NCBI RefSeq assembly: GCF_004010195.1
Contig: NC_057752.1
Coordinates: forward strand, 11,255,160 to 11,319,159
Length of the DNA: 64,000 nucleotides
Source: Chiloscyllium plagiosum
Lineage: Eukaryota
Reading direction: 5' to 3'
Below are positions 25,513-62,796 of the stretch, piece after piece (within the stretch, counting starts at the first letter, position 1; each line of letters starts with the position of its first letter). Made by a program: the position numbers and the translations under genes. The notes under the pieces are model-generated. The model was given only the letters and a program-made list of their open reading frames with translations. It did not search any database and had not been told where the DNA came from.

Positions 25513-25527
25513 AAGTCCAGTGAGGCC

Positions 25528-28803: not shown

Positions 28804-28807
28804 AAAC

Positions 28808-31739: not shown

Positions 31740-32810
31740 ATAACAAGGACAGAACCCCAGGTCCTCGCCTTCCACTCCACCAGCCTCTGCATAAATTGTA
31801 TCATCCGATGACATTTCTGCCACCTACAAATGGACCCCACCACCAGAGATATATTTTCCTCCCACCCCATCCACTTTCTGCAAAGACCATTCCCCCATGA
31901 CCACCTGGTCAGGTCCATGCCCCCACCCTCCCAACAAGCCACCCTCCCCTCCTGGCACCTTCCCCTGCCACTGCAGGAATTGTAAAACCTGCGCCTATAC
32001 CTCTCCCACCTCCATCCAAGGCCTCAAAGGAGCCTTCCACGTCCATCAAAGTTTCACCTGCACTTCCACCAATGTCATTTATTGTATCTGTTGCTCTCGA
32101 TGCAGCCTCCTGTACATTGGGGACACTGGAGACCTTCTCGCAGAGTGCTTTAGAGAACATCTCTGGGACACCTGCATCAACCAACCATACCACCCTGTGA
32201 CTGAATGTTTCAACTCCCCCTCCCACTCTGCCGAGGACATGCAGGTCCCCTGGACCGCCTCCATCGCCACTCCCTTGCCACCCGATGCCTGGAGGAAGAG
32301 CACCTTATCTTCTGCCTCTGAACCCTTCAACCCCAGGGCATCAATATGGACTTCACCAGTTTCCTCATTTCCCCTCTCCCCCACCTTACCCCATTTCCAA
32401 CCTTCCAGCTCAGCACTACCCTCATGACCTGTCCTGTCTGTCAATCTTCCTTCCCGGAGAAAGTGAGGTCTGCAGATGCTGGAGATCAAAGTTGAAACTC
32501 ATTCCTGAAGAAGGGTCTGTGCCCGAAACGTCGAATCTCCTGTTCCCTGGATGCTGCCTGACCTGCTGTGCTGTTCCAGCAATAAAGTTTCAACAACAAT
32601 CTTCCTTCCCACCTATCTGCTCCACCCTCCTCTCTGACTTATCACCTTTACCCCCACCTCCAACTACCTTCTCCCCAGCCCCACCCCCTCCCATTTATCA
32701 CTCCACCCCCGAGGCTCCCTGATGAAGGGTTCCTGCCCGAAACGTCGATTTTCCTGCTCCACGGATGCTGCCTGACTTGCTGTGCTTTTCCAGCAACGCA
32801 CTCTCAACAC
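31740..32810 (+). mobile_element. Penelope-like retroelement 3' part (GIY-YIG endonuclease) with terminal repeat
   Basis: ORF 31897-32427 reads GTFPCHCRNCKTC...FTCTSTNVIYCICCSRCSLLYIGDTG...FREH. Hammerhead-like core CTGATGA...GAAAC at 32719-32743. Confidence 0.9.
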
Positions 32811-33099
32811 TGAATTTGTTGATCTTGGCGAGAGTTACGCTAGAGTGTAGTATTCTAATTGGTTTCAGCATACCCTGGGCTTGGGAGGGGTATGATACTC
32901 CAGGTCATTATCCATTGACTTTTGCTAAAGAAAACAGATGTTTATGGATTAATTGGTTGCAATTGCAATCTGAAAACATGTGCCTAAAATCATGCTAGCT
33001 GTTCCCTCCATTAAGAATTGTTACATGAGGAGATTGTTGGAAATTTAATTTGGTTTGTACTACGCAAACTGTATTTCCTAGTTACTAGGTCCATTCCTC

Positions 33100-34420
33100 T
33101 CCTTGGCAACTTATCTGAAACTAAACCAGTCTATTTGCAACCTTGGTGTTATACTTGACAGATTACAACCACGTAGTCAAGCTGTCACTCGATGCTTACT
33201 TTGACCTCTATACTATAAGAATGCACCCCTGCATCAACTCATCTGCTGAAACCATCATCCATGCCTTCATTACCTCCAGATTTGACTATTTCAGTGCACT
33301 TCTGGCTGGTCTCACACATTGCCCTTTGTAACTTTTATTGCCACCCAAACCTCTGCTCGTGTCTTAATTTGCAGTGAGTTGTGTTGCATTAACACTCCTG
33401 GCAGTCATAGACCCACATTATGTTTCTGGGAAGCAATGTCTTAAGAGTCATAGAGACCCTTCAGTCCAACTCGTCCATGCCAACCAGATATCCCAACCCA
33501 ATCTAGTCCAACCTGCCAGCACCTGGCCCATATCCCTCCAAACCCTTCCTCTTCATATACCCATCCAAATGCCTTTTAAATGTTGCAATTGTACCAGCCT
33601 CCACCACTTCCTCTGGCAGTTCATTCCATACACGTACCACCCTCTGAGTGAAAAGGTTGCCCCTTAGGTCCCTTTTAGATCTTTCCCCTCTCACCCTAAA
33701 TCTATGCCTTCAAGTTCTGGACTCCCCACTCCAGAGAAAAGACTTTTGTCTGTTTACCCTATCCATGCCCCTCATGATTTTGTAAACCTCTATAAGGTCA
33801 CCCCTCAGCCTCTGACACTCCAGGGAAAACAGCCCCAAACCTGTTCAGCCTCTCCCAATAGCTCAAATCCTCCAACCCTGGCAACATCCTTGTAAATCAT
33901 TTCTGAACCCTTTCAAGCTTCACAACATCTTTCCGATAGGAAGGAGACCAGAATTGCGCACACTATTCCAACAGTGGCCTAACCAATGTCCTGTACAACC
34001 GCAATGTGACCTCCCAACTCCTGTACTCAATACTCTGACCAATAAAGGAAAGCATACCAAACACCGCCTTCACTATCCTATCTACCTGCAACTCCACTTT
34101 CAAGGAGCTATGAACCTGCACTTCAAGGTCTCTTTGTTCAGCAACTCTCCCTAGGACCAAATTCTCTTTGATTTCAAAGCATGACCTTGTTCCTATCTCT
34201 GTGATTGCCTCCAGCCCCACACCTTTGTTAGATATCTGCCCTCTATCAAATCTGGCATCTGGAGTACCTTTGATTTTCATTGACCATGATTTCAGTTCCC
34301 TAATCTCCAATTTCTAGAATTCTTCCCAAAAGCTTCAACTACGTGCTCCTTTTAAAAGCTATTTTTTCTGCCCTAATATCTCGTTTGTGGCTTGATGTCA
34401 AATTTTGTTTGACCCTCCAG
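33100..34420. mobile_element. L2-like fragment (+) interrupted by a young CR1 3' fragment (-, 33445-34155)
   Basis: ETIIHAFITSRFDY (L2) flanks the CR1 ORFs 33503-33694 and 33963-34150. Confidence 0.8.
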
Positions 34421-34559
34421 TTGTGTGAATGTTGCAGAATTTTACTTGCAACTGATTATGTTGCACAGCCAGTAGAATGAATTTGTCTCCTGGATTTAAG
34501 TTAACTGCTTCTCCAATGACAATAGTCTTGATATTTTTTTAAAAACCTGTTTGGATGAG

Positions 34560-34770
34560 TTGTGACACACCTCTGGAGCAAGTGAGACTTGAACCTTGGC
34601 TCTCTGGTTCGGAGATAGGGACACAATTACTGGCTGCAAGAGCCTTGATATGTAGTTATTTTAATAAACATGTTGGACATGTTATGACACTCCCCTGGAG
34701 CAGGCAGATCTTGAATCTAGATTGTCTCGTTCACAGGTAGGAACACTTGCAACTGTGCTGCAAGAGCCCA
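34560..34770 (-). mobile_element. Two tandem degenerate tRNA-like SINE heads
   Basis: Two similar units of about 85 bp, each ending gctgcaagagcc. The reverse complement of the first has B-box-like GGTTCAAGTC. Confidence 0.5.
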
Positions 34771-35991
34771 TATGACAATATTCTTAGCATATGAATTCAT
34801 CCAGTCACTTCATTTACTTCCTCATTTCCATTTTTCGAAGTCTGACCTGTCGGCTTACTTTGAATCTAATGCTTTCGTTTACACAGCGCTGGTCTCTGAA
34901 GTGTGTTACTTGAATATTAGAGACATTATTCTTAGATCTAGTGAAGTACCACTGAGTCTTTACAAGTACATCAACTAACTTTTACTGTTGGTTGCTGCAT
35001 GATTTATCTTAGATGTAATTAAATAGAATTCTGGGTGTAATCTTCTATTCACCATCTTTAAACTGAGGCATTGTTAATGGCCTTTCTTACCTTAATTTCT
35101 TTTCATCACTACAAATGCTTTCTGTAGTTTTTTCCTTGTTTTCTTTTACTGTTCTGTGTTGCAGGTCCTTGAAACATGCTCATTATGTTAAAATTTAATT
35201 TGTGTGGAGATTAATTCATGTACTGCAGTTTTAAAATGCCTTATAGTTTGTGTCTGGAGAGCTAATAAGGACAGTGGGTCAAGTGGCCTCCTGTGCTGTA
35301 GCAGTTCTATCATTGGTTTATGTACACTCAAATGTCTATTAAATTGAGTTATCTGAATGGGCCTCTGTCTCATTTTCTTATCCTTTTGATGTCACATTGT
35401 GTATTTTGGTATGTAAGCAACAGTTGCTTAAGTCTGAGTGGTACTGATGCCGATAATGAATAAATCCATTTTATTTTGAGTTGGCATCTTTTGCATATGT
35501 TCCATTACTGTTCCAGTAGTACCTTCCCAACAGGAGTGATTGGGATATTTTGATGGTTGTATTGCTGGAGGGGGTATAATATCATATCCAAGATTAGTTC
35601 TTTGCAACAGTGCATGTTTTTTGATTATTGAGAGAACAAGACTAATGTAAAAACCCATTGCAACACTTTTAAGGTATTTAAGTGAGTTGTATAGGATAAT
35701 TTCTGTTTGAATGGCAAATAGGATGGAGCAAATGCATCTGTTCCGAAATGCATGAACACCCGATTTATTTCATATTGTCAGCAATTCCACAACAAAGAAG
35801 GAGCAACTTGCTTTTTCATGATGATATAAAGACCCATTTCAGTAGTTTACATCATTTTAAAATCATTTCACCTATGTGCTTCTATCTGTAATTAGTTTTG
35901 TTAATTCCTTTCCCTGTCCAAGATTTACTGCTAAGATCGAATAAATCACATTGATTTATTCATTGCAATCTATATTCATTGCAATCTATGT

Positions 35992-36287
35992 GGGCGGCAC
36001 GGTGCTGCCTTTCAGCGCCAGAGACACGGGTTCAATTTCCACCTCGGGCAACTGTCTGTGCGGAGTTTGCACATTCTCTCCGTGTCTGTGTGGGTTTCCT
36101 CCAGGTGCTCCGGTTTCCTCCCACAGTCCAAAAATGTGCAGGTTAGGTGAATTGGCCACGCTAAATTGCCCATAGTGTTAGGTGAAGGGGTAAATGTAAG
36201 GGGATGGGTCTGGGTGGGTTGCTCTTCGAGGGTCGGTGTGGACCTTTTGGGTCAAAGGGCCTGTTTCTACACTGCAAGTAATCTAAT
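35992..36287 (+). mobile_element. tRNA-derived SINE (HE1-like)
   Basis: gggcggcacggtg...gggttcaatt B-box; gagtttgcacattctctccgtgtctg; cccacagtccaaaaatgtgcaggttagg; CR1-like tail. Confidence 0.9.
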
Positions 36288-36408
36288 ATACTGTAGAATA
36301 CATGCTTCCTGTCTGCAAGCTTTAGTGTCAAAGTTTTGAATTGCTTGTTTGCATATGAATTCACAAGAATAAATGGTGACAATCATGGCTGAACACCTTC
36401 CCACCATA

Positions 36409-36623
36409 AAAGCAAATTACTGCGGACGCTGGAATCTGAAGCCAAAAGAGAGAATGCTGGAAAATCTCAGCAGGTCTGGCAACATCTGTAGGGAGAGAAA
36501 AGAGCTGACATTTTGAGTCTAACTGACCCTTTATCAAAGCTGGACTCGAAACGTCAGCTCTTTTCTCTTCTTACAGATGCTGCCAGACCTGCTGAGATTT
36601 TCCAGCATTTTCTCTTTTGGTTT
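36409..36623. mobile_element. Fold-back PLE-derived cassette with 15-bp target-site duplication
   Basis: Direct repeat caccttcccaccata at 36394-36408 and 36624-36638; internal inverted arms of about 80 bp. Confidence 0.85.
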
Positions 36624-36639
36624 CACCTTCCCACCATAG

Positions 36640-37535
36640 CTAGATCATATGAAATAGGAAGAGGAGTAGGCCGTTTCGACCTTTCGAATGGCAAAGCATA
36701 TTCATAGGGTAGTGGGTGATCCAACATTACTCATGCCTACTTTATTGTCCCCCATAACCTTGACTTTCTGACTGATCAAGAATGTATTTATCTTGCCCTT
36801 AAATAAACTCAAGGACTCTGCCCTCACAGCTCTCTGGCAAGGAGTGTCAAAGACTGACAATCTTCTGAGAGAAGAAATTCCTCCTCATCTCAGTCTTAAA
36901 TTGGTGCCCCTTTATTCTGAGGCTATGCCTTCTGATCCTAGACTCTACCATGAGGGGGCAATCCTCTCAGCATTTACCCTGTCAAGCCACATAAGATTTC
37001 TGTATGCTTCAATGAGATCACCTCTCATTTTACTAAACTCCAGTGAGTAGAGTCGCAACTAGTTGCCTTTGCACATTAGACAATTCCTCCATACCAGGGA
37101 TCATCGTAATAAACCTTCTCTGAACTGTCTCCAATGAAATGATAACTCCCCTTAAATAAAGGGACCAAAACTGCTCAGTGTTCTAGATGTGGTTTCACCA
37201 GCACCTTGTACAGTTGCAGTAAAACTTCCGTACTCTTCTACTCCAAACCCCTTGAAATAAGGGCTGACATTCCATTAGCACTGTGAATTATCTACAGCCT
37301 TTGTGTGCTAGCTTTGTTTTTTATGTACAAGTCCTTTTCAGCTTTCTACAGTATTTCTCCATTTAAATCATGTTCTGTTCTTTTGTTCTCCCTTCCAAAA
37401 TAAACTTTGCATTTCATGTATTATACTCTATTTGCTAACTTTTGTCCACTTAGCTTGTCATTGGGTCTCTAAAACTATTTGTGATCCAGTCACAACCTGC
37501 CTTTCCACACACAGTTTTGTGTCATCTGCAAATTT
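36640..37535 (-). mobile_element. Old CR1 3' fragment
   Basis: Reverse complement encodes LYKVLVKPHLE and F.TEMRRNFFSQ; CR1 tail at the left. Confidence 0.75.
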
Positions 37536-38834
37536 AGCTGCTGACTTCCTCCTAGTTTGTTGCTAAACTAATTTAATCATTCCAAATACATTTTGAAAGA
37601 AATGCATGCCTACCGTCTACACTTTAATATTCAAAATGAAATCGGAGATTCAAAGTTCCACAATTAATTATCTTTGCATTAACTTTTAAATTAAAAAAAG
37701 CCTTCAAGGTCCGAGAGGATCTTGGAAGCTTTTGCTTCCATTGTGTAATATTTTCCCCTCTTATTGAGAGGAAATGGCTAACTGGATCTGCCGAAATTCA
37801 TCAAAGCTCCTTAGCCAGTCCTCTCCAAAAAATGTGACCACTGTCATCTAAAAGGACACAGACAGAAGGTACATGGGAACACCACCACAACTTCCCCTCC
37901 AAGTCACACTCCATCCTGATTTGGAAATTTATTGCTGTTCCTTCAGTGTTCCAAAGTGAAAATCTGGGACCTCTCTTGCTTTATCGCTCTCTGGCTCTGT
38001 GGTCCATTTGTTGTACAGACAGGTTTTTTGCAGCAGTTCTAGAAGGCAGCTCAGTTCAGAGCCAGTCTACAATCTGGTCAGTTGTATGATTTAAAGTCAA
38101 AAGGTGCATATCCCTCACTCCATAAGCTTTTGGTTATTCTGCAAGAGTTTGAAAGATTTTTTTAAAAAATAAAAACCTCTACCACTTTGAAGCTTCAGGG
38201 TATTTTAATAGGTACTTATGAAAAGCTAAAAAATACACAAGTTAACATTTGAGCTAACTCTTTTCCTGGGTTATGTTTTATTAAAAACTAAGTTGCTACG
38301 GTTGTACAATACAAAATGATTTTCATCAACTACTTTTTTAAGAACCTTGTGTGTCTTAAGATGGAAACCATTTGACAATTTAGAGGGATAAAGTAGGGCT
38401 GATTAGTACCTTGGGGCACAGAAGAAGTTATGGGAGGAATCTGACAAACGAAACCGGGTGTGTGTATTTGAAAGCAGTCAAAGACTGACTGTTTTGGGTT
38501 CTCCTCTCCTGCTGGGTCCTAGTTGCGCCAAACATTGCTAGCTTCTGTCCTTCCTTGGCTTTAGGACACTTTGGTCCCTGTGGGAATGGAAAGCAAATAA
38601 ATGGTCATGGTTGCTGAACTCATTTTCATTTGCAAATGGATCGAGTCATTGAATGCAGTTCTGAAAACGCACAAATTCTCTTAACTTCTTGAAGTAAAAA
38701 TAGTCAACTACTGAATAATAGCAGCTCTGCAAATGATGTCTTGGTATATGCAGTGCTACTTAGAGTTGTACCAACTATCTTTGATTCACTACTCCTGGTT
38801 GAATATATGCTAATAATGTTTCTGTTTATGTTGC

Positions 38835-41358: not shown

Positions 41359-41858
41359 NNNNNNNNNNNNNNNNNNNNNNNNNNNNNNNNNNNNNNNNNN
41401 NNNNNNNNNNNNNNNNNNNNNNNNNNNNNNNNNNNNNNNNNNNNNNNNNNNNNNNNNNNNNNNNNNNNNNNNNNNNNNNNNNNNNNNNNNNNNNNNNNNN
41501 NNNNNNNNNNNNNNNNNNNNNNNNNNNNNNNNNNNNNNNNNNNNNNNNNNNNNNNNNNNNNNNNNNNNNNNNNNNNNNNNNNNNNNNNNNNNNNNNNNNN
41601 NNNNNNNNNNNNNNNNNNNNNNNNNNNNNNNNNNNNNNNNNNNNNNNNNNNNNNNNNNNNNNNNNNNNNNNNNNNNNNNNNNNNNNNNNNNNNNNNNNNN
41701 NNNNNNNNNNNNNNNNNNNNNNNNNNNNNNNNNNNNNNNNNNNNNNNNNNNNNNNNNNNNNNNNNNNNNNNNNNNNNNNNNNNNNNNNNNNNNNNNNNNN
41801 NNNNNNNNNNNNNNNNNNNNNNNNNNNNNNNNNNNNNNNNNNNNNNNNNNNNNNNNNN
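41359..41858. other. Assembly gap (500 N)
   Basis: Run of n. Confidence 1.
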
Positions 41859-42844
41859 TGTTTTCCTCTGGATTGTAAAAACTCAAATTAGTAAACACCT
41901 CAGTAATTATCTCACCAGGTAGCTTGTCTACTCATTTAGTTGAAGTCTTGGAAATTCTGTTTTGACTTTTTTTTTTGAGATTCAAAACAAAATCAAGCCT
42001 GCTTCATGGAAGTAAAAACAAATTGCCCCACATTAGAACCCAAGTTCCCAAATAATAAATTATAAATTTTCATACTATCTTGAATGTATTCTAGGAATTC
42101 TTCCTCTGCAACACTAGTTTTCATTAGATTTACGATTCTATATGTAGATTGAACTTACCCAGAAGTCTTGCATTTCCCTTGCGACATACAGTTTTTTTAT
42201 GATTGAAACTGTGCCCTACATTGCCAGTACTGTTTAGTCTATAAACCATTCCTACCAATGTTTGCTGGTCCTTGCTGTTTCTTATCCAAACAGATTCTAC
42301 ATTCTGTTCTTTCGATATGAGATCTTTTCTCAATAACACGCGGATCCTGTCCCTCCTCAGAGCACTACCCCCACCTCCTTTTCCTTCGTCAACCTGCAGA
42401 AACATCTCTGTGATGGCAATAAAAGCGTACCTTTTCCTTCTACTGCCCTATCAGTTCAGTTATTTTGTTGAGTGCTGTCCATTCAGTACTTTTAACTCTG
42501 CCCCTTTTTAACACCATTGTTTAATTAAATCTTAGTCGAGTTTAGGATTTTTTTCTGCTGCCTTTCACTTCCATTTACAGCTTTTGTACTCCTCCACCTT
42601 TTGTTTTTATTCTACCTGAAGTTCCCGTTCCTCTGACAACTGAGTTTAAACATTCCCTACCAGCATTAGTAAATCTCCCTGCAAAGATATTAGTCCTGGA
42701 CCTGCAAAATTGTAACTTGTCCTCCTTGATCCAAAATATAAATGGGGGCATGCAAATGCTGTGCCTAAATTGTCATCTAACAAGATATTGTACATCTTTG
42801 CATTATAAGAGAGCCTCCATAATGAACATGTTATTTACATGACT

Positions 42845-44780
42845 TAGAGGTGCCAGTGTGGACTGGGATGAACCAATTTAAAAATCATACAACACCAGGT
42901 TATAGTCCATCAGGTTTATTTGGAAACACTAGCTTTCGGAGTGCTGCTTCTTCCTCAGCTGCTTGTGGAGAATAAGATCATAAGATACAGAATTTATAGC
43001 CAAATGTGCAGTGTCATTGCAGTGTGATGACTAGGATCTAAAAGTGTTTATCACGTCTTTCATCTTTTAAAATGGGATGTGTTGGCTTCTGTTCTTTGAT
43101 ATGTAAATCCCAGAACTACTTTTAAATTACATTCTCAGGGTATCTAGCTTTTCTAACAATGTCTGAGCTGAGATAGCACCTAATGCATTAAGGTGTGAGG
43201 TCTGTCTGTGTCCCGATTTGGAGATGCCAGTGTTGGACTGGGGTGTACAAAGTTAAAAATCACACAACACCAGGTTATAGTCAACAGGTTTAATTGGAAG
43301 CACTAGCTTTCGAGCGCCGCTCCTTCATCAGGTGGTTGTGAAGGACACAATTGTAAGGCAGAATTTAAGACACTGTAAACTTTTGCTATAAATTGTGTCT
43401 TACAATTGTGTCCTCTGCAATCACCTGATGAAGGAGGCGCTCCGAAAGCTAGTGCTTCCAATTCGACCTTTTGGACTACAAACTGGTGTTGTGATTTTTA
43501 ACTTTGTGTCCCGATGTTGAGTTAGGCTGGTTCTATTTCTACAGTGGGGTTTAGAGTTTTACGTAGATTCATGCAGTTTTTGAGCAAAATAAAATTTAAT
43601 TCTGCAAAAATAAATTTGCCACAAACTTGTGTGCGCGCATGTAGGAGAGACTGTGTGAGTGCATGTGTAGGCTTGATTGTGTGATGCGGTATATGCCTGT
43701 AAAAGGGTGCGTGCGGGGTGTGTGTGTGTTGCAGTGGGGTCACCTGTAGTGTGACGTGACCCCAAGGTCCCAGTTGAGACCATTCCCATGGGTACTGAAC
43801 GTGGCTATCAGCTTCTGCTCGGCCACTCTACATTGTTGCTTGTTCCGAAGTCTGCCTTGAAGGACATAACCCGATGGTCCGGGCCATTCGACCTCGGAGT
43901 GCTGAAGTGTTCCCCTTACCTGGTGATTGTTGCGCAGTGTCCATTCATCCATTGTTGTATCATCTGCGTGGATTTGCCAATGTACCATACCTCAGGGCTT
44001 TCTTGCCTGCAGCATCTGAGATAGACAACGTAGGCCCAGTCACATGGGCGCTCGCAGTGTACCTGGAGGAAGGTGTCCCCACATGTAATGGTGGTATCCG
44101 TGTCATCACACTGACACGTCTTGCAGTGGCTGCTGTGACAGGGTTTTAGTGTTGTTGTTCTGAAGGCTGGGCAGTTTTCTGCGAACAGCTATCTGTTTAA
44201 GGTTTGGTGGTTGTGTGGAGAAGGTCTTGGCGAGGTGCTTATCCTCATTGATAATGTATTGCAGGCTGCCAAGAATGTGGCGTAGTCAGTCGGCTCCTGG
44301 GAAGTACTGGACAGCAAAGCGTACCCTGTCTGTTGCAGTTCGTGTCTGTCTCCTGAAGAGTCATTATGGATATTTTGCGGCGGCACAACGGAACTGGCGA
44401 TCAATGAATTGGGCATCATACTGTTCTTATGAGGGCATCTTATGAGCACTTCAAGTGTCATATCAAGTTGTCCTCATCCGAATCAATTCTGTGTATGCGT
44501 AGGGGATGGCTGTTTTTAATGTGTTTCGGGTGGAAGCTAGAGCAGTGTAGCATTGTGAGGTTATCTGTGGGTTTGTGGTAGGGTGAGGTGCTGAGGTCTC
44601 CATTCTTGATGGAGATGAGTTTGTCCAAGAATGTGAGAGATTCTCAAGTGGTCCATGGTAAGTCTGACAGTGGGATGAAACTCGATTGATATTGTTATTT
44701 ATAGATAGCAACTGTTACTCTGAAAGTGTTCTGTTCTCTCCACTATAATGGCGAGTCCAGTTGACAGGATTTGGATGGGT
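42845..44780 (-). mobile_element. Penelope-like retroelement (RT C-terminus, GIY-YIG, terminal repeat), degenerate
   Basis: Minus strand gives KTAIPYA, WYIGKS..QWMNGH and VAEQKLIATFSTHGNGLNWD; terminal repeat at 42845-43000. Confidence 0.8.
43218..43504. mobile_element. Fold-back PLE terminal-repeat cassette with hammerhead-like cores on both strands and an 11-bp TSD
   Basis: tgtgtcccgat at 43207-43217 and 43505-43515. CTGATGA 43425-43431 with GAAAGCT 43444-43450, mirrored at about 43305-43332. Confidence 0.85.
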
Positions 44781-46324
44781 TTGGTTGATAACTAAACTTG
44801 TGTGAAAGTGTGCTCTCAACATGAATAACCTGTCTAAAACTGGAAAAAGTGAGGACTGCAGATGCTGGAGATCAGAGCTGAAAATGTGTTGCTGGAAAAG
44901 CGCAGCAGGTCAGGCAGGAAGTCTAAACTGGAAGTATGGAATGTCTTATCTATGCAAGTTAGCTGTTGCTGAATAAGCACTCTGTTATAAACTGGTTTTT
45001 TGCACTACTTGTTGAATTAACTCTGAAAGAAGCTGTAATATTTTAACAAAAATGACACGAGGCATATGGTTTTGACTGCTCTTGGTTTACTGTGGAAGGG
45101 ATAGTGGATGTTTGGAGTGTGGAAAAGTACTTCTGTCAGATAATGTTGATTGAGGAAATTGTAGGACAGTTGTGAATTCCAAAATATTAGTGTAAAACTT
45201 GCAAGACAGTTGATTAAAGCCTGATGTTTTGACGTCATTTGCAAGCTTAAGCCTGATGATATTGCTTAGTCAGATTTGGGTTGAGTGGATTAGTTGCCTT
45301 AGCCTTAGCTATTTTCCAACCTACTGATCAAGTTACAAATTCTCTAACTGCTTACCATTGGAAGTTTCTTTTTGCTCATTGTGGGGCAAATGAATACAAA
45401 TTGAGATTGCTATCATTCCGATCTGTCAATCCAGATCCTTGCTGAAAATCCAAGCACAGAAAAGGATATCCAAGCCGTCGCTGTCTAGCAAATATTGTTA
45501 AAAACCCAGTCCGACACTGGCATCTCCAAATCGTAGTAAATATTGGTTAGATACATTCAAATTTGTGCACATTTTGCTTTGGCTAGCTCTCTTGGCAGCC
45601 TTGTTGACCAACACATCTCCCACTGTGGAGAATGATCCTTTTATACTGAAGATGCCAAATTTAAAACCATTTTTATATGCTGAGTTTTGATTTCACATGA
45701 TGTAGTTAGTAAAGGTGCCTTACAGTTGGTCTCCATACTCCTGAACAGGAAATAAACAGCCAGAGTTTGTTCTAACTGTACTGAAACTTCTGTATGTGAA
45801 TGACTTGAGCACATCTCTAATGTCCTGTGTGGTTGCTTAGCTTGCTGGCCTCAGCTGGTTAGGTTCGTGCATGAATTCCAACTTGATTGGGTACCGTTTT
45901 TTCTGATGCCTCAAAACTGTTCAGTGCTGCAGTGTGTCTTGAGAATGAAGGAATTAGAAACCTGTCTCATTGTCTATGTATAGTGGATTCATTTGTCCTC
46001 TATTTTAGAGTGTAAACATGGTTAGATTTTCTTAACCTGCTTTTGTCTTCCACTAACAAAGTTTTACAGGCAAATGCCAATATTTTATGACCTTGTAGTA
46101 ATTTATCTTAATTCATTGTTTTGACTGGGGAAGCAAATAGAGGTCTTAGTTTGACGAACTGATTAGAGAACAGGAAAGCATAGTTAAGGGAAGATGGGTA
46201 AAAAGCCAGACATATGAACACGCTTTATTTTTGTCAGTTTCCTCAGTGCTCGGAGGATCTGTTTGCAGTGTTGCAAAGATTTGGGAAAAGTCACATGGCA
46301 GTGTTAAATGGCTGGAAGTTACTT

Positions 46325-46800
46325 GGAGTCATGATGTACAGCGTGAAAACAGACACTTAGGTCAGCATGGATGAGTTGGACCAAAGGGGCAACCTTTTCA
46401 CGCAGAGGGTGGTACGTGTATGGAATGAGCTGCCAGAGGCTGTGGTGGAGGCTGGTACAATTGCAACATTTAAGAGGCATTTGATGGGTATATGAATAGG
46501 AAGGGTTTGGAGGGATATGGGCTGGGTGCTGGCAGGTGGGACTAGATTGGGTTGGGATATCTGGTCGGCATGGACGGGTTGGACCGAAGGGTCTGTATCC
46601 ATGCTGTACATCCCTATGACTGTATAATAATTGAGGTTTGTTAAATATATCATTTTACTTGTATGACACTAATCTTTTGCTATAGATTCTGTGTCTTATG
46701 GTCCTAGTCTTCAACCACCTGAAGAAGGAGCAGTTCCCAAAGCTAGTGCTTCCAAATAAACCTGTTGGAATATAACCTGCTGTTGTGATTTTTAATTAGT
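46325..46800 (+). mobile_element. CR1 3' end (46385-46620) followed by a PLE terminal-repeat fragment
   Basis: TQRVVRVWNELPEAVV tail; then cctgaagaaggagcag...aaagctagtgcttccaaataaacctgttgg. Confidence 0.75.
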
Positions 46801-47769: not shown

Positions 47770-49706
47770 AAGCTGTACCTGCATCTAACATTTTGTGATT
47801 CATGTACAAGAACACCCAGATTCCTCTGTAGTAGAGCATTTTGCAGTCCATGTCCATTTCAAGAATCTCTTTTTCTGTTCTTCCTGTCAAAGTGGGCAAC
47901 CTTACATTTTACTCCATCTGCTAAATTTTGCCTGCTCCTTTTAACTTTTCTATGACCCTTTGCAGACTCTTTATATCAAGGTCATAAGATGTGGGAGGAG
48001 AAGTAGGCCACTCAGCCCATCAAATCTGCTGCACCAGTCAATGAGATCATAGCTAATCTGATAATTTTCAACTCTACATCCCTGCCTTTACCCCATAAAC
48101 CTTAATTGCCTTCATGACCTATAAAGGTCTATCTCAGCCTTGAATATACTTAATGACCCAGCCTCAACAGTAAAGAATTCCACGGATTAGCTGCTATGTG
48201 AGAGAAGGAATTCCTCTTCATCTCTGAATTAAATGGCTGACCCCTTATTCTGAGATTATAACCTTCTGGTCCTAGACACTCCAGAGGGAATCAGCTCTAT
48301 ATCTGCCAGGTCAAGTTTCCTAAGAATCTTGTATGTTTCAATAAGGTTGCCTCTTACTCTCCGAAAATCCAATCCGTACAGGCCCAACCTGCTGAACCTG
48401 TCCTCCTAAGCCAGTACCTCAATACCTAGTATCAGCCTGGTGAACATTCACCAGTGCCAGTGCATCCTTCTCTTCGATAAGGGGCCAAAAGTGTTTTCTG
48501 TATTCCAGCTGTGGTGTTGACTAGTGACTTGTATAGTTTTAGCAAGACCTTCCTATTTTTATATTTCATTCCTTTGAAATAAAAGACATTTCATTTGTTT
48601 TCTCTATTACCTCCTGAACTTGGGTGCTAGCTTTTTGTGGTTTAGGAATAAGGACTCGCACATTGCATTGTGCTTTCTGCACCCTTTCTCTATTTAAATA
48701 ATATTTACTCTTCTTCCTGCCAAAATGCATAACTTCACATTCTGTCTGCCAAGTTCTTTTGCCCACTTACTTAGCTGATCTATAACCCTCTACAGACTCC
48801 TTGTCATTCTCATCACTTGCCTTTCAACCTATGTTTGTATCATCTGCAAATTTGGCTACAGTGAATTTACCTCCCTCATACAAATGATTTATATGTTGTA
48901 AATAATTATGGCACTCATTACTCTCCCTTATTTCTATCCCTCCTTTCACCCCCCTGTTCATGTGTCTATCAGGATGCTCCTTAAACATTGCTAACGTGTC
49001 TGCTTCCACTGGCAGTGTGATCCAGGCACTCACAATCCTCTGAAATATTTTCCCTGCACTTCTCCCCTAAATTTCCCCCCCTCACTTTGAACCTGTGCCC
49101 TCTTGTAGTTGACCTTTCCACCCTGGGGAAAAAGCTTCTGACTATCCACCTTATCTGTTCCCCATATAATTGTATACAGGGTAGACCTCTTATTAGGTTG
49201 GTTCTCAGCCTTCGTCTTTCCAGTGAAAACAATCAGTTTATCTGACCTCTCATAACTAAAACCCTCAAGACCAGGCAATATCCTGGTAAACCTTCTCTGC
49301 ACCCTCTCCCAAGCATCCACGTTCTTCTGGTAGTGTGGCTATCAGAACTGCACGCGATATTCCAAATGTGTTTGAGCTAAAGTTTTATTCAGCTGTAACA
49401 TAACTTGCCGACATTTATATTTGATGCCCCAGCAAATGCAAGGTGATCCATTTTGGAAGATCAAATTCAACAGCGAATTATAGAATGAATGGCAGAACCC
49501 TTTGGGGCACTGACAGAGATCTGAGTGTACAGGTCCACAGATCCCTGGAAGTGGGGACACAGGTAGATAAGCTATTCAAAAAGGCACACAGCACGCCTGC
49601 CTTCATTGGCTGGGGCATCAAATATAAATGTCGGCAAGTTATGTTACAGCTGAATAAAACTTTAGCTCAAACACATTTGGAATATCGTGTGCAGTTCTGA
49701 TAGCCA
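47770..49706 (-). mobile_element. Nested CR1 fragments; the youngest (48945-49440) has an inverted segment (49441-49706, +)
   Basis: ORFs 48566-48766, 48824-49033 (KFADDTNIG), 49030-49320 (ERVQRRFTRILPGL) and 49443-49700 (+). Confidence 0.85.
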
Positions 49707-49938: not shown

Positions 49939-50083
49939 CAGAGGAACCTCTATTATCCGAAGGACACAGGCAGGGAGTATTTTGTTTGAATAATCAAATG
50001 TTGGATAACGCAGTTTAGCCAAGCATTGGGACCTTGCGATCTTGTTCGGATAATCTGAAATTTGGATAATCAAGGTTCCTCTG
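49939..50083. mobile_element. pogo/Tigger-type MITE, 145 bp
   Basis: TIRs CAGAGGAACCTCTATTATCCGAA and TTTGGATAATCAAGGTTCCTCTG, flanked by TA at 49937-38 and 50084-85. Confidence 0.85.
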
Positions 50084-50537
50084 TACATATCTCCTCTTCT
50101 ATCTCCCGCTGGCAGCTGGGAGATAGTACGATGCTAGATTGTGATTGCACCCTTCCTATTCCTAAGCTGTACCCATACCCTTTGCTGCAAGATCCCTCCA
50201 GGGTGTCCTCCCTCAACACAGCTGTGATCTGCTCCCTAACCTGTAATTCAACTTCCCCACCTTTTACTTCCTCCTCCTCGGTCTTGTCTAAAACATCGCT
50301 ATCCCAGAACATTAAGCTGCCAATGCTGTCACTCTTTCAACCATGGCTCTATGATAGCAGCAACAATATAATTGCATGCTTTAATCCAGGCTCTGGGTTC
50401 ATACACCTTGCTTTGAAGCAAATACAGTCCAGGCTTCCAGTTGTGCTCTTCCCCTGTGATGTCAGCAGGATGCTTCCCTGGAATGGGTCACAGTCATCAG
50501 TGTTGATGTCAACCATCTTCAAACTCACTTGCAGGTG

Positions 50538-50692
50538 GGAGAAAGTGAGGACTGCAGATGCTGGAGATCAAAGTCGAGAGTGTGGTGCTGGAAAAGCACA
50601 GCAGGTCAGGAATCCTGATGAAGGGCTTGTGCCTGAAACGTCGATTCTCCTGCTGCTTGGATGCTGCCTGGCCTGTGCATTTTCAATACAAC
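50538..50692. mobile_element. PLE-derived cassette with hammerhead-like core and 15-bp TSD, inserted in an old RTE fragment (about 50450-51050, -)
   Basis: actcacttgcaggtg at 50523-50537 and 50693-50707; CTGATGA 50615-50621 with GAAAC 50635-50639. Confidence 0.85.
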
Positions 50693-51249
50693 ACTCACTT
50701 GCAGGTGTCCTTGTATTGGAGGTATGAAAGCCAGGAGGCTGTGACCCAATGGTCATTTCACTGTACAGAAGGTTGTTGAGAATACAGCTGTTCTTTAATA
50801 TATGTGACAAAGCTAGTGCAGATGTTATTGCCTCAGCAAGAGTGAATGTTAATGGAATTAGAATGCTGTATGACCTCTGAGTTGATGATCATCTTCTGCG
50901 AAGAGATGCTGAGGACACATCTAAGACAAAGATGAAAGCTGTTCAGCCTTTCCTGCTGTCTAGCATATGTGGTCCAGATCTCACCACTGTAGAAAATGCA
51001 CTGCAGACCTGAAAGTGTCTTTGAGTTATCCAAACTCTGTTCTGATTGACTTGGTGTTAAAACACATTCGTACTCGTGTTGAATAGTGAGTCATAAGGTG
51101 CCCTGTGTGCACTTTCTCACTTTCTCTGGAAGCTGGATGATTGTTCATCTGACTTGCATGTTGAAATTATCCTATGAAGTATTGGTTACTTTACATGTTC
51201 GTATGAAACTTCATATCAAACTTCGTATGAGCTGTTTTTTAAAGTAATA

Positions 51250-51873: not shown

Positions 51874-52484
51874 TAAATGGGGGAGTTTTAACATTTTGTA
51901 CTTTGATAAATGTAGGCAGGAAAAGGGCATCAGGCTCCAATCTTCACCCTATCTTTTGAATAATTGTTCATCCCATACACTGACCATCCCATTCTGTCTT
52001 ATCATTTTAAAACCAAAAGCAAAAAAACCACTAGAGAACTGCAGCTGTTTCAGAAGGTTTCACTCTGGCAAAACAAAATTTGTTGTGATGGCTTATCGAT
52101 GCTGCAAAGGTCCTGTTTGATGACTTAGTTACAAATAATTTACTTCCATCATTTGTACGCAATGATTACCTAATTTTTCAGGAATTCACTTGGTGTCTTT
52201 CTGAAAACATGTTTCCAGGCAAGCCTCCGAATCCTGTTACGCAGGTTTTTCCACTATCCAGAGTCACTCCTCCAGCTTACTAATTTTTACTGGTGACTCT
52301 TTCTTCTGCTTGATTCCATCAGCTTCAGTTTTGTGATGTTTGGGCTTTGTGATTTTGAAATAAAAACTCCATTGTTGAGTTCTTATGGGGGAAGCTGTGG
52401 GGTCCTAGATTTGCACCTTCCCATGATGAGCTCCGCTCCAGGTAGTGGTGACATTAAATACTATTCAAGATTAGGGGAGTAATT

Positions 52485-55430: not shown

Positions 55431-56484
55431 GTATTAACTGTTGTACAAGTCATGCGTAAACCATTTTGTTTTATAATAGGCTAAATATGACATGCACCTT
55501 GAATAAGAGTTTGTTATTTTTTCCTTTTTAAATGAGGGGTGAATATTCCTTTAGAAGAGTTTACTTTCATATAGGATGTTTTAATTTAGAAAATGTCTCG
55601 GGGGTTTTTTTTTTGTTACAAAATAGAATACGAGTAGTTCAATTTTGAGTTAAAAGTGACAAAATGTTTTTAAGTCTTCAAAAGTGGAAAAGCATGGTGG
55701 TTTTGGCAGCAAATATCAGAGACTCTGGGCCCATTCTTGTTTTTTTTAATCCCATGTTTGCCTTAATTGGTTTTGCACAGGGTCAAGCAGAAAAGACAAA
55801 GCAAATTGAACTTGCAGTTAAAAACCGAAATATAGATGTAAAATATTGCTATTCCAGTACTCTCACTCAGCCTCTTAAAATGAGTCTCTCATCCTGGAGC
55901 ATATTAATTTTGCTTACAAAGTAATTCTGAAACTATAAAATATAACCTCGCCAAAACAAAAAGCTTATTAAAACTACAGCATAATTGCAGGTAAGTAGAA
56001 CTATTCTCCAAAGAATGTACTGCTTTATTGAGATTTCTGTAAACTCCACATTAAAAGCAGCCAGTTGGAAAATATTTGTGTACAGTCCATTGAGTTGCTA
56101 AATTATTAAGCCTATTTAAATTACCTGAGTGATTCTTGTTGGCTGCAGCCTGCTGTAGCAGGGTGCTGAGTGTTTGAAATCAAAACATCAGAGACATTTC
56201 TTCACTGCAACAGGTTATTCTATGCAATGGTAAGTGACCAACATGGGTGCTATTTACAATCAGTTGAATTTTTAGATCTGAACAATGCTATAGCCTAGAG
56301 AAACATTTGATGGTAGTCATTGGAATTTAGAAGGAAGCTATTTTGTCATTATGCCCGTGGCTGCTGCTTGTTTGAAGCTGCCCATTCTTGTTTGTAATCA
56401 ATTGGATATTCGGAGCAATGTGCAAATTCTCAATTTTGCCACTGAGTACTGTATACTGTACTACATAACTGATGACTAGAAGAC

Positions 56485-57720
56485 CGTAAGACATAGGAAC
56501 AGAGATTAGGCCATTCAGCTCATCGTCTGCTCTGCCATTCAATCATGGCTGATAAGTTTCTCAACTCCATCAATCAAGATAATCAAGAACCTATCTATCT
56601 CCATCTTAAATATACTCAATGACCTGCCCTCCACAGCCTTCTGTGGCAATGAATTCACCACTCTGGCTAAAGACATGTCTCCTTCTCTCTGTTCTAAAAT
56701 GTCTGTAGTGATGTAGACTCAATCCATCAGAATGTTTATGAAATTGGGCATGTTGTTTGGAATTTGAGGTGCCTTGGGTGGGAATGTCATCGAATGACTA
56801 AATTGTTATGCCATGTGGTTGAAGGGTTCTCTCTCTCCCTTCTCTTCTCTCTTTCCCCCCCCCCCCCCCCCATTCCAGATGCAGCTCTCCATCTCAGTAC
56901 TGTCCTCATGACCTGTCCTACCTGTTCATCTTCCTCCCCACCTATCTGCTCCACCCTCCCCACTGACCTATCACAATTATCCTTGACCTGCATCCACTTA
57001 TCACCTTCCCAGCTACCTGCTGCGTCCCCACCCCATATTTATCTTAACCCCCTTTTCCCACCACCTTCCTGATGAAGGGCTTATGCCCGAAACATTGACA
57101 CTCCTCCTTGATCCTTGAATACCTGTGTTTTTCCAGTGTCACACTTTTGACTCTGACTCTCCAGCATCTGCAGTCCTCACTTTCTCCTGGGTGGGAGGTG
57201 TGCTGATAGAAGGATGCTTCAGTGTGATTTGGACAAGTTGAGTAAATGGGCAAATGTATGGCAGATGCAGTATAATGTGGATCAATGAGGTTATCTACTT
57301 TAGTAGGTAGGTGGGTGGGGGGGGGGGGCGAGGGAGGGATGCGGGTGGAATCTTGTAGAAATGTTTAAAATCTTGACAGGACTGGACAGGGTAAACACAG
57401 GAAGGATGTTCCTAGTGACCACGGAGTCCAACACCAAGGATCACTGTCTTAAGGATATGGGGTCATTTAAACTGAGATGAGGAGAAATGTCTTTACCCAG
57501 AGTTTGGTCAGCTTGTGGAATTCTCTGCTACAGAAAGCAGTTGAAGCTAAAATACTGAATATTTTCAAGAAGGATTTAGATAGAGTCCTTAGGGCTAAAG
57601 GGATCAAAGGATATGTGTGAGAAAGTGGGAACGGAGTTCTTATTTTAATGATCACGTGTAATCATTTGAATGGTGGAACAAGCTAGAAGAGCCAAATGGT
57701 CAACTCTTATTTTCCGCATT
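56485..57720. mobile_element. CR1 fragments (- 56485-56700, + 57220-57720) around a PLE terminal repeat (+, about 56870-57188)
   Basis: CR1 tails; PLE repeat with CTGATGA 57069-57075 and GAAAC 57089-57093. Confidence 0.75.
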
Positions 57721-59840
57721 TCTATGGAGAATAATGAGTTCTTATTTACAATGAGAGAATTTTTAGCAAACAATTGTGCATTAGACTCCAGTTCACATGG
57801 TCAGGGGCATTTTTTTCCTTTTGATAAGGGAAGATTTTTTGGTTTCAGTTTGAGCAGTTCTACGGTTTTTTTGGCTGAAGCAGAATATGTTGAGAGAGAG
57901 ATGACAGTTTAAACCTTTTTAAAATAGATTATTTCAATGTAAGGAGTTTGGTGAAAGTTCCAGAGCAGAAGGGTTTGGTTAAAACCTGAAAGGGTTACTT
58001 GAAGCTGAGAAAACTTAATGTCAAGTTTATGAAGGCACTAGAAAGAAACTGAGATTCTCAACACTGGGAGTTGAAGCCATAATTAAATTAAGCTGTATAG
58101 GAATAATAGAAAAGGGATTTTTGTCCCAGTAAGCATATTGTCAAGAGTGCTTTTGGGATTAATGGGATTGCATTTTTGCTGTCGTTTTGAAGTCTTTAAA
58201 AACTGTTATATGTAAATACTTTGAGTTGTTCTATTTTAATTTTAATTTCTTTTACGTGGACGTCTGTTTTATTATTAAAATTAAATCTGCAACTTTGTGA
58301 GAGACCAAATCATCAAGAGCAAATCCACAATATGATCTGTCAAGCCAAGTTTCAGTCTGGGATCTGATTTGTCCAATAATCACATTTGCTGGATCATAAC
58401 AGCAGAGACTATAATTGAATTTGATTGGATGTATTTATAGAGGAGGAGAAAGAATTGAGGAATGTGGTCAGTAGGTAGCATTGATCTCTCTTCCCATTAA
58501 TAAAATCTGTTAGCTGTTTTTGACATTTTTTCTTTATGAAATGTGGCATTGCTAGTTAAGTTAGCAATTATTGTCCATTCAGAATTGCTGTGATGAATGT
58601 GGTGGTGTGCTGCCGCTTTCAGCCCCTGCAGTCGCAGGTGTTGGTACACATTGCTGCAGAGGCCTGTGAAGGTCAAGTCATTGAGTCTCTTCAAGATTAG
58701 TAAGGGGATCAAGGGTTATGGAGGGAAGGCAGAGGAATGGAGTTGAGAAAGATGTCAGCCAGACTCGAAGGGTTGAACAACCTAATTCTGCTCCGATATT
58801 TTAGGGTCTCGGGGAACATCCACAGTAACGTTTGGGATTTCCAGAACTTTGACCCAGAGATACTGAAGGAGCTACAATCTATTTTCAAATCAGGATGTTA
58901 TATGGCTTGGAGGGAGATTTGCAACTGCTTTCTTGCATTTTTATCCCTTGTCCTTCAAGTTTATAGAGGTCACTGGTTTGGAAGGTGGCGGATTGGAAAG
59001 TTCCTCTGGTGCATTTTTGTAGATGATACACACTTCTCCAATCTTTCATCGGGCATTTGGGTGTCCCTCAAGCAAGCTGTTTTGTCTTGGATTGTGTTAA
59101 GTTTCCCAAGTGGTGTTGGAGCCACACTCAGTTAGTCACAAAGAGAATACGCATTCATGACTTGTGCCTTGTAGATGTTGGATAGGCCTTGGTGGGGGGC
59201 ACAGATGAATTATTTACCATAGAATGTTATTGTAGCCACAGTATTTATGCAAGTTAATGTAAATGGGCAATGGTTGGCTATTCTCTTATTGGAGATAATC
59301 ATTGCTCGGCACTTGTGTGGTGCAACCACACTTGTGCCATGCATCAGTCAGAGACTGGATGCTATCTATGTGGTGTTGCATTTTGGATGCAGGTCTGATC
59401 TGCTGGAAGAACTTAGCTTTCAGCTGACTTCCAGTGCTTTAGAGCTGGATAAGGGAGCAATCTGCCAGTAATTCTGACTTGCTAAGTATATGATGCTTAC
59501 TAGAAGTAGATATGGAAGGACGAGGTTAGCCTTCGTTCCTGAATTCCCAAGTGGAATAGCTTGCTGGTGTTCACTTATGAAGAATGGCGACTTGTGCTGG
59601 AGTCATCTGTGTAATTATAATCTAGAAAATGTTGAAGACCTTCCTTTCGTGAAAGGCAAAGAAATGGGGAGTTGGGGGGAGAAAAAAGACCAGGATGCCA
59701 TAACCCCCTCAAATTGCATTAAATACTGTAGGAATGATTTTAACAAATGAGATGGGTCGGGGGAAAACAACTCTAGTGGAAGTTGGGATCGCATTTTTAG
59801 CCCTTGTGTGAATGCTTTATCTTTGTGCATGAAATTGATA

Positions 59841-60166
59841 GAATCGTAGAATCCCCAGATTGTCTGAAGAGGCCATTCGGCTCATCAGGTTAACATTGAG
59901 CCGACAAAGGGTATCTCTTCCAAGACCCAGCCCCCAACCTATCCCCACTTAACCTGTATATTCCTGCACATTATGGGCAATATAGCATAGCCCCATCCAC
60001 CTATCCTGCATATCTTTGGACTGTGGGATGAAACCGGAGCACCTGGAGGAAACCCGCGCAGACATGGGGAGAATGTGGAGTTTGTATGCAGAAAGTCACC
60101 CGAGGCTGGAATCGAACCCAGCTCACCTAGAGCTGTGAGGCATCAGTGCTAACCATTCTGCCACCT
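59841..60166 (-). mobile_element. tRNA-derived SINE (HE1-like)
   Basis: Reverse complement reads ggtggcagaatggttagcactgatgcctcacagc...gggttcgattcc (B-box)...cccacagtccaaagatatgcagg. Confidence 0.88.
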
Positions 60167-62404
60167 GCAAAATAATAGTTTAATTGAGTTTCAATGAGCA
60201 CTCCTGGGTCAGGTCGGTGCAAGAGTTCCTACTGTTTTATCTTGCCATATGCCTTATTCCCATCCTCCCAAAAAGCATTCACTACCTGCACCAGTGTAAC
60301 ATTTTGTACACTCGCTATCCTATACACTGAGTAAATCTGCTAATTCAATACTTTGGAAAACGTTTGTCCTGCTATTCCTGGATTCATCCCCAGAATGAAA
60401 GACGATAAGTGCACAAAATTCCCCAATTTCTGATTTTCAGACCCAGGTTGGTTGATAGTACGGACTAGGTTTCTGTGTTTAGTAGGAGTTGCTATTTGTT
60501 ATAAGTAATTAGTCTCTAGCTGCAGGTCAACAGGTATTAAATATTGTCATAACTCTATTTAAAACACACACGTATGCACACGCACTCTTGAGTGGTGCCC
60601 GCTGATCGAAATGTTTCTTTGACTCCCCTTTTCTGAATGCTTTCACTGATTTGCAAGAGGTGTCGGGTGGCTAGCTCACTTGTAAAAAGTCTCTGATTTA
60701 TTATTAAAGATCAGTGTATAGTAACTGCTGAAGGTCAGATTAACTAAATTCTTTCAGGTTTAAAGTGAGTTTCCTTGCAGAGAAGGAGAAGCTGCCTGCG
60801 TTGGTGGAACTCAACCCTTCTCTGTGACTTGTTCCCTGCTCCAAACTGTCCAGTCACACGGGAAACAGTCGTCTCTCAATTGTTGGCAAGCAAAAGACCC
60901 TTGTCATCAGTAGCTGTCACCAGACCATAGACCAATCAGCAACTTGATGCCAGCCAGTGCTTTATCTGAATGCAGAAACCCTTAGCACCTGTTTGTCTGT
61001 AACCACTTCGATTGTTGTTTATTCAAACTGCTAGTTATGCTTACCATGGGTGTCTAGTAACTTGCTTTCAAACCATGCAGCCATCCTTCTAAAACTAAGG
61101 TTTTAAAACAATCATTCATGGATTCATGGTCATCAGTAGACTCTTAATTCCAGATCTTTGTTGAATTCAAATTCCAACATCTGCCGTGGCAGGATTTGCA
61201 CCCACGTCCCCAGAACATTACCTGGGTCTCTGGATTAACAGTCCAGCGATAATACCACCAGGCCATCTCCTCCCCTAAAATGTTACACCAAATCATTCAG
61301 TTGGGTTCCAGTGTACACTGGAATTGTACACTGTGCATTGAATTTAGCACAATATTTATAAATATGTTTCTAACATTAATTTTTTAAAAATGCTAATCTA
61401 GCTTGCTGCATTTATCGAGTCAGGTTAATACTCAACTAATGTACATCATTGCATAAACATCTCATTTCATTTTGAGAAGGGTGTTATGGGGAGAGGTTCA
61501 GGAGTGGGGAAGGGAATATAAACCTTTAATCAATCTATATTAAAATATGCCAGCAAGAAGGTGTCCACACCAGGCCAGTGTCATGTCCCAATATATGAAG
61601 TAATGAAAAGGGAGGCCAGCAATTGTTGTTAAGAGCGAGCCTGGGCATCCATAAGAGAACCTGGCTTCACTTTTCTCTCCACAGATGCTGCCGGATCTGC
61701 TGAGCTTTTCTAGAAATTTTTGTTTTTGACTTCACTTGTTTGTTGGCAGACACAATGTACAAGATGGGTGTAAGAAAGTTCCCCATTAAATTGAAACCAC
61801 CAACTGTAGTTAATGAGAAACTAAGGCGGGGTTTTCTTTAGAGAAGAAAATGTTGGAGAGGAAATTATTTTTAGAGGTCAAGGCAAAATAGATACTTTTT
61901 GAAACCAGACCTAGGACACCTTGAAAAGTGCAAAAGACAGAAAAGTTTACTGAGGAGCCACAACCTTTAATTACACTTGACGGTATGCACACAAACACAA
62001 AAAGTGGACAACTGTTAATGTTATGTGCTTTGCAATTTGCGTAACCTGATGGATATAGGTGGGATTTCTATTAAAATCCTGAGGGGATTTGACCAGGTGA
62101 ATGCTGAAAGATGTTTCTCCTTCTGGGAGAGACTAGAACAGAAGGATATGGTTCAAAATCTGAATTCAATTTTAATACCCAGATCAGGGATTGTATCGTC
62201 ATACATTTGGAATTCTCTCCCCAGTGTCTGATGGAGGCAGGCTCATTGAATATTTTTAAGGCAGAGGTAGACTGGCTCTCCGGTCAGCCAATTTTGGGGG
62301 TAGGCCAGGATATAGAATTGAGGTAAAGGTCAAATCAACCATGATCTTATTGAACAGTGGAGCAGGTTTGAGCATCTAAATGACCTATTCCTGCTGCTTA
62401 TTTG

Positions 62405-62757
62405 GACGATGTGGAGGTGCAGGTGTTGGACTGGTGTGGACAAGTTTAAAAATTTCACAACACCAGGTTATAGTCCAACGGGTATATTTGGAAACACTAG
62501 CTTTGAGCGCTGCTTCTTCATCAGGTAACTGTGGAGCCGGATCATAAGACACAGAATTTATAGCGAAAGATCACTGTGTCATGCAACTGATATGATATAT
62601 CGAACAAACCATTTCTGTTGCATGACACAGATTTTTTGCTATAAATTGTCTTGTGATCTGGCTCCACAGCTACCTGACAGTGGAGTAGCACTCCGAAAGC
62701 TAGTGCTTCCAAATAAACCAGTTGGACTATAACCTGGTGTTGTGTGATTGTTAACTT
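62405..62757. mobile_element. Fold-back PLE terminal-repeat cassette (same family as 43218)
   Basis: Inverted arms at about 62445-62588 and 62615-62757; short direct repeat cttatttg at 62397-62404 and 62755-62762. Confidence 0.8.
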
Positions 62758-62796
62758 ATTTGTATTCAAAGCTTGTGAGATTTGTAGCTCGGGTGC

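Follow-up and report, generated by a model that had tools for sequence, protein, structure and literature searches.

How do short, non-coding inserts built only from the terminal sequence of Penelope-like elements (PLEs) arise, and are they a mobile element in their own right? The question is raised by one 64,000-nt stretch of the Chiloscyllium plagiosum genome (the window), from which all results below are taken, copy comparisons and paralogs included, and in which a preliminary description had noted six such inserts, each bracketed by a direct repeat. We find that the inserts are new members of a PLE insertion type already described, an inverted pseudo-long terminal repeat (pLTR) plus a tail, and not a new kind of mini-element. 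Most probably they arose independently, site by site, as insertions of endonuclease-positive PLEs (four families in all) with heavy 5' truncation, both nicks priming complementary DNAs (cDNAs) that then join. The six inserts, with their target-site duplications (TSDs), family and length between the repeats, are the following.

32442..32610, insert A, family N1: TSD 32442-32455 and 32597-32610, 14 bp, exact; the tail arm occupies 32456-32499 on the minus strand and the second arm 32500-32594 on the plus strand, the latter starting 5 nt before an intact minimal hammerhead core at 32505; 141 bp.
36394..36638, insert B, family N2: TSD 36394/36624, 15 bp, exact; the tail arm (36409-36541, minus) breaks off 4-5 nt ahead of a core that has decayed, and the second arm (36543-36623, plus) stops 30 nt short of where the tail ends; 215 bp.
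43207..43515, insert C, family N3: TSD 43207/43505, 11 bp, exact, its final 4 nt overlapping the 3' end of the family; the tail arm runs to about 43385 on the minus strand and the second arm covers about 43381-43504 on the plus strand, each with its hammerhead core preserved; 287 bp.
44832..44933 (minus strand), insert D, family N1: TSD 44832/44921, 14 versus 13 bp, one indel; a single tail arm, about 44845-44917, without hammerhead; 75 bp.
50523..50707, insert E, family N1: TSD 50523/50693, 15 bp, exact; tail arm 50538-50610 (minus); second arm 50611-50692 (plus), beginning at the helix I strand, 4 nt before an intact core at 50615; 155 bp.
62397..62762, insert F, family N3, of a subfamily other than that of C: TSD 62397/62755, 8 bp, exact; the tail arm runs from 62405 to about 62611 on the minus strand and the second arm covers about 62612-62754 on the plus strand, each with a decayed core; 350 bp.

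All six direct repeats lie where they had been reported and stand far above chance: among 20,000 random boundary pairs drawn from the window, with a tolerance of ±4 nt, repeats of at least 8, 11 and 14 bp have probabilities of 0.003, 0.0008 and 0.0005. The division into three sequence families (N1 with A, D and E; N2 with B; N3 with C and F) likewise stands. The inserts had been called mostly fold-back, which is true of B, C and F only, whose arms are 86-91% identical over 81-139 aligned nt (74/81, 103/114 and 120/139, respectively), but not of A, an almost pure inversion with about 9 nt of arm overlap, of E, which is intermediate at about 27 nt, or of D, which has one arm. Hammerhead-like cores, said to be kept in several inserts, are intact in three of the six (A, C and E), decayed in B and F and absent from D.

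N1 and N3 sequences adjoin the 3' side of remnants encoding a GIY-YIG nuclease and the thumb of a reverse transcriptase (RT). The N1 open reading frame (ORF) of the copy at 31795 is 67% identical over 135 aa to the RT/GIY-YIG protein P0001, in which Pfam reports GIY-YIG (E 2.5e-4) and RVT_1 (E 0.008), both below the Pfam cut-offs; the sole protein match to this ORF is a protein named as from Chiloscyllium punctatum. Similarity to P0001 extends to N3 (E 4e-6) and to a fourth family, P (E 0.002). Pfam run directly on the five N3/P stretches gave no match, and on the PLE stretches of the window it gave one weak GIY-YIG match (E 0.087). N2 has no ORF-attached copy in the window; what ties it to PLEs is homology with N1, for which nhmmer gives E values as low as 3e-13. 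In N1 and N3 a cysteine linker precedes the nuclease, a feature that the accessible part of PMC8557442 gives for the Neptune and Nematis clades.

Sequence comparison indicates that the direct repeats of A are a TSD. An N1 copy at 56852-56982 aligns to the flanks of A over 131 nt without a gap when one repeat is kept and with 14 gap positions when both are, and P0001 also reads through the target of A with one repeat copy. Translation of the flanks of E, judged by eye, gives one motif with one repeat copy and a duplicated motif with two. The arms are PLE 3' ends flanked by genuine direct repeats, and the earlier proposal of PLE origin and retroposition with TSDs is supported. Short inverted repeats with TSDs would also be seen in miniature inverted-repeat transposable elements (MITEs) of a DNA transposon. 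The inserts are not MITEs, because their TSDs vary from 8 to 15 bp and their ends are asymmetric, the inverted repeat stopping 30-44 nt short of one terminus; their arms, moreover, are joined to GIY-YIG ORFs elsewhere in the window. We give a MITE origin practically no credence.

Further copies in the window show the same layout or only one arm of it, and two longer ones host inserts named above.

62754..63909, family P insert, the same layout at 1.1 kb (62765-63897; this family presumably resembles Poseidon): the tail arm, from 62765 to about 63570 on the minus strand, includes an RT-thumb remnant and a gap of 50 N; the second arm occupies about 63575-63897 on the plus strand; TSD 11/12 at 62754/63898, reusing the right TSD of F; arms 253/264 identical (96%).
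45486..45545 (plus), the smallest member, N3: a 36-bp insert at 45498-45533, in which the bare tail is joined to 7 inverted nt that derive from the second start zone; its TSD is 11/12.
61662..61737 (plus), N2 single arm at 61673: stops at the second start zone and has neither tail nor hammerhead; TSD 10/11.
31497..31717, fold-back G, an older N2 insert: possible TSD 8/9, weak.
31795..32812 (plus), longer 5'-truncated N1 PLE: cysteine linker, GIY-YIG, 3' untranslated region (UTR), hammerhead at 32719; hosts insert A.
42838..44720 (minus), longer 5'-truncated N3 PLE: RT thumb, cysteine linker, GIY-YIG, 3' UTR, hammerhead at 42958; hosts insert C.
7345..7475 (plus), N2 single tail arm: begins at the hammerhead core; no clean TSD; sits inside what we take to be a LINE-type (long interspersed element) 3' end.
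24099..24220 (minus), old N3 single tail arm: stops 1-4 nt ahead of a core that has decayed; its 7/8 TSD is doubtful.
46634..46797 (plus), N3 single arm: ends at the second start zone.
56852..57187 (plus), N1 single tail arm: 335 nt; spans the target site of A without the insert.

Profile search of the window gave no further clear members of the four families. The centre of G (31573-31637) holds a 21-bp unit three times, which includes the palindromic letters of hammerhead helix III. Two insertions struck a single site: F, the older with arms 86% alike, and the family P insert, with arms 96% alike, share a CTTATTT target that is now present three times. A and C have each landed in an older member of their own family, within its 3' UTR (rough P=0.013 for two of eight), which by analogy with PMC11167929 may reflect nicking in the element's own pLTR.

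When arms are aligned in the sense of the element, each insert is seen to open with the reverse complement of a fixed PLE 3' end, and each family has two 3' ends: the full end, common to four N1, three N2 and five N3 copies, and a second one 30-44 nt inside it. An inverted second arm is present in five of the six named inserts and in G, the family P insert and 45498. It stops 30-44 nt before the tail-side TSD edge in 7/7 two-armed inserts tested, leaving tails of 30, 30, 30, 32, 33, 41 and 44 nt at one end only. The inner 3' end is also the one used by the single arms at 46634 and 61673. In three of seven cases (B, C and E; P=0.007) the second arm's own continuation shares 2-4 nt of microhomology with the TSD, F being a fourth case only if a one-base slip is allowed. 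The tail lies on the left in seven of eight two-armed inserts, which is not significant (P=0.07; 10/16 overall, P=0.45). No head-to-tail copy, that is, no partial tandem with direct pLTRs, was found in these inserts; a partial tandem is optional for single PLE copies and needed for active ones.

With this one layout the inserts form a size series of 36, 141, 155, 215, about 220, 287, 350 and about 1130 bp, a thirty-fold range in which the inner junction is different each time and no two inserts have both breakpoints in common. It had been suggested that fixed or variable breakpoints would separate self-propagating elements from truncated insertions. Within the window the inner junctions do differ in every insert, from 36 bp to 1.1 kb, but in N1 and N2 the arms often stop where the hammerhead begins on its 5' side, a point taken up below. 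Diagnostic quartet sites among the arms fall 15 within-insert, 0 same-side and 1 crossed for C/F, and 6, 0 and 0 for B/G. Because the arms group by insert (21 sites against no same-side site), no single master palindrome gave rise to both C and F, or to both B and G.

These data bear on whether the inserts are palindromic mini-elements or retrozymes that propagate themselves with fixed boundaries, which we consider very improbable. Such elements would be short, non-coding and flanked by TSDs, as the inserts are, and three of the six do keep a hammerhead. They should also share junctions, and no junction is common to any two inserts of the window, nor is there a same-side diagnostic site. Nor are the inserts retrozymes, because they contain no tandem hammerheads: with arms arranged head-to-head, either strand has at most one motif in the sense direction. 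The retrozyme-like half of the earlier proposal is not supported; its other half, that the inserts are minimal insertion products, is.

All four families (N1, N2, N3 and P) carry a minimal type I hammerhead motif. The CUGANGA core was matched at the given coordinate in 10 of the 15 positions examined; the tail arm of F and 46719 have no downstream GAAA, and the second arm of F, B and 24216 are decayed or mis-indexed. Helix I covaries between A (ATTC/GAAT) and E (AATC/GATT). Rfam returned no hammerhead family in the window, its 11 matches all lying below gathering scores and being mostly miRNA-like (microRNA-like) hairpins. Judged by sequence against the accessible part of PMC4209133, the motifs agree with the minimal hammerheads of metazoan PLE pLTRs, with no difference of substance: both have the CUGANGA core, the extra nucleotide after A9, G10.1, a short helix I and a palindromic ACGU/AGCU in place of helix III, as in the dimer-type form. 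The predicted transcripts of B, C and F each fold into a single long hairpin (-137 to -198 kcal/mol), which should sequester the ribozyme and so also counts against self-propagating retrozymes. In E (50538-50692, plus strand) the minimum-energy fold contains helices I and II, which the junction allows to form, and helix I is lengthened by the inverted arm.

We propose the following course of events. The GIY-YIG nuclease would nick both strands of the target with a stagger of 8-15 nt, the span of the observed TSDs. One nick would prime a cDNA at the fixed 3' end of the family, where the tails are seen to end, and the other would start a second cDNA at a point 30-44 nt deeper in the RNA, the offset measured above, as extrapolated from the behaviour of a lizard PLE in vitro. 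Both cDNAs would abort early, and the joining of their 3' ends would leave an inverted repeat, head-to-head, with the tail on one side only. Survival of one cDNA would leave a single arm, from the tail site in D and from the inner site at 61673 and 46634. The overlap of the arms would set where the product falls between a near-pure inversion, as in A, and a full hairpin, as in B, C and F.

A mechanistic variant of this scheme, in which one cDNA folds, is copied back toward the tail and has its end joined to the target, seems to us unlikely. Its attraction is that the arms of one insert share subfamily variants and that self-priming has been proposed, in the accessible part of PMC3846280, for PLE inverted junctions. 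Snap-back leaves unexplained the single arm at 61673, which lies at the inner start zone with a TSD of its own, the nearly non-overlapping arms of A, and the constant 30-44 nt offset matching the second RT start site. The second arms of A and E, moreover, reach further 5' than the tail arms, so double priming fits them better than snap-back, unless the tail arms were partly deleted later.

Several observations weigh against double priming at independent sites or narrow the evidence for it. Double priming and snap-back of one cDNA are not distinguished by the present data. A clean single-copy paralogous empty site was found for A only: in the window no paralog spans the target of B, C, D, E, 45498 or 61673, the F/P paralogs are mixed (one reference favours the single copy, 43 versus 33.5; the other does not, 57.5 versus 60), and the test at 7345 is marginal (52 versus 50). 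The preference for AT-rich targets seen in vitro is not evident, with TSDs of 45-83% AT in a window of 57%. The quartet test spans different subfamilies, so that master palindromes limited to a subfamily, or arm-to-arm conversion, remain compatible with it. The arms differ by 4-14% while four TSDs are exact, although ascertainment can explain this. Finally, the inner ends are not fully random: a flat stop rate would give the clustering at the hammerhead with P of 2e-5 to 3e-4, for an interval that was picked post hoc.

This clustering concerns N1 and N2, in which six arms extend as far as the hammerhead and four of them stop 0-5 nt ahead of the core (A at -5, E at -4, B at -4/-5 and 7345 at 0/-1), while the 57187 arm and the 31795 host pass through. 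Among N3 and P arms, one of nine ends at this edge. Ribozyme cleavage was considered as the source of the inner ends and rejected, as only the second arm of G begins near the cleavage site. The simplest reading is that the stop marks the 5' end of an ordinary transcript with internal priming at the promoter-proximal pLTR. Alternatively, the RT may stall at the ribozyme fold, or a separate short RNA may have been copied. PLE start sites are located in the pLTR. In D. virilis the end of the intron coincides with the point where helix I begins on its 5' side (PMC4209133, accessible part).

The last of these alternatives deserves a fuller statement. That the N1/N2 stop is the true 5' end of a hammerhead-to-tail RNA of about 120-135 nt, a non-tandem template resembling a short interspersed element (SINE) and mobilised by Penelope protein, is a speculative idea that we hold to be rather unlikely. 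The full form of the explanation, with non-autonomous copies whose short non-coding RNA (about 120-135 nt, from the hammerhead 5' edge to the tail) templates N1 and N2 while a PLE protein acts in trans and the palindrome is rebuilt each time, strikes us as doubtful and quite unlikely. The inner ends of A, E, B and 7345 agree with it, as do the core-to-tail distance of 119-129 nt in N1/N2, the helix I covariation between A and E, and the absence from the window of an ORF-linked N2 copy; pLTR sequences, according to the accessible part of PMC3846280, suffice for trans-mobilisation in rotifers. It has to contend with the presence of long ORF-linked N1 and N3 copies and with N3 and P arms that mostly pass through the motif. 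A transcript start in the pLTR with internal RT initiation would, besides, give the same fixed 5' end without any separate element.

Independent insertion with double priming places the inserts beside structures already reported, which we cite here from the accessible parts of the sources. PMC8557442 describes PLE insertions next to which a 5'-truncated copy lies inverted, one end bearing a tail of 30-40 bp, and PMC3846280 describes inverted pLTRs that are 37 bp shorter, with a 31-bp tail and TSDs of 8-10 bp. Such complex endonuclease-positive insertions (PMC8557442, PMC3846280, PMC8969392) share with ours the head-to-head inverted pLTR, the one-sided tail (30-44 nt here), the variable TSD, the heavy 5' truncation and GIY-YIG source elements; they are described around ORF-bearing copies, whereas most of the present inserts have no ORF and measure 36-350 bp. 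In PMC11167929 the purified protein of the Anolis Poseidon PAc acts on both strands, which it nicks and extends, the tail is bounded by two adjacent RT start sites, a dimer is predicted, ribozyme cleavage is not needed and the RT initiates internally. Here the two start sites bounding the tail are matched, and nicking of both strands, seen in vitro there, would be the counterpart. PAc also nicks its own pLTR, as the location of A and C in own-family 3' UTRs recalls, and family P shares with it an AC-rich second start zone. In contrast to PAc, the TSDs here are not consistently AT-rich, and three of seven second-arm junctions have 2-4 nt of microhomology, whereas PAc starts at non-homologous sites. 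The accessible text of that paper does not derive head-to-head palindromes from double priming. Non-LTR retrozymes (PMC7229834, bioRxiv 10.64898/2026.07.22.740005) are likewise non-coding, PLE-related and endowed with a type I hammerhead and TSDs above 4 bp; they form head-to-tail tandem arrays with mostly canonical hammerheads and release circular RNA, unlike the head-to-head inserts here with one minimal motif per strand.

Twin priming of L1 elements offers a further parallel. There, 5' inversion results from priming at both nicks with short microhomology, much as proposed for the present inserts; the two L1 halves barely overlap, and one starts at the poly(A). Unlike these, both arms here start near the 3' end and their overlap can exceed 130 nt. 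A literature search that did not extend to most subscription papers, the 2005-2006 PLE reviews among them, found nothing on shark PLE mini-palindromes or on PLE twin priming.

The window is rich in retroelement remnants, some with inverted or tandem structures of other kinds. An inverted repeat of a non-PLE family at 49336-49706, presumably a LINE, has two arms of 103 nt that are 98% complementary and separated by 165 nt. A different abundant repeat end forms inverted pairs at 25288-25759, within which a short hairpin (25482-25563) has sub-threshold miRNA matches, and at 28627-29370; a GC-rich minisatellite of 54/60-nt units covers about 900 bp at 26879-27788. A search of metagenomes with the 19-nt tail motif returned 98 loci, the best 25 all with similarity of at most 24 nt, and was treated as chance. 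The last exon of a POU-homeodomain gene, which we take to be POU6-like, lies at 9561-10037 (Pfam Pou and Homeodomain). A motif scan of the window for exons of the neighbouring host gene gave no convincing match.

For annotation, repeat pipelines can call such inserts MITEs or miRNA hairpins, and insert B itself draws sub-threshold miRNA matches from Rfam. Both PMC11167929 and PMC8557442 call, in their accessible parts, for more mechanistic work, which would bear on how PLEs make head-to-head inverted ends. As elements the inserts are ordinary; their value is as fossils of the mechanism, in which tail-site-only, inner-site-only and presumably double-primed products stand side by side, down to 36 bp. 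A genome-wide table of their junctions could test double priming against snap-back. If the template of about 120-135 nt proved real, double priming would write a new DNA palindrome at every insertion, and the shark genome would be a large natural record mapping the RT start sites of PLEs and the 5' end of their template at base resolution.

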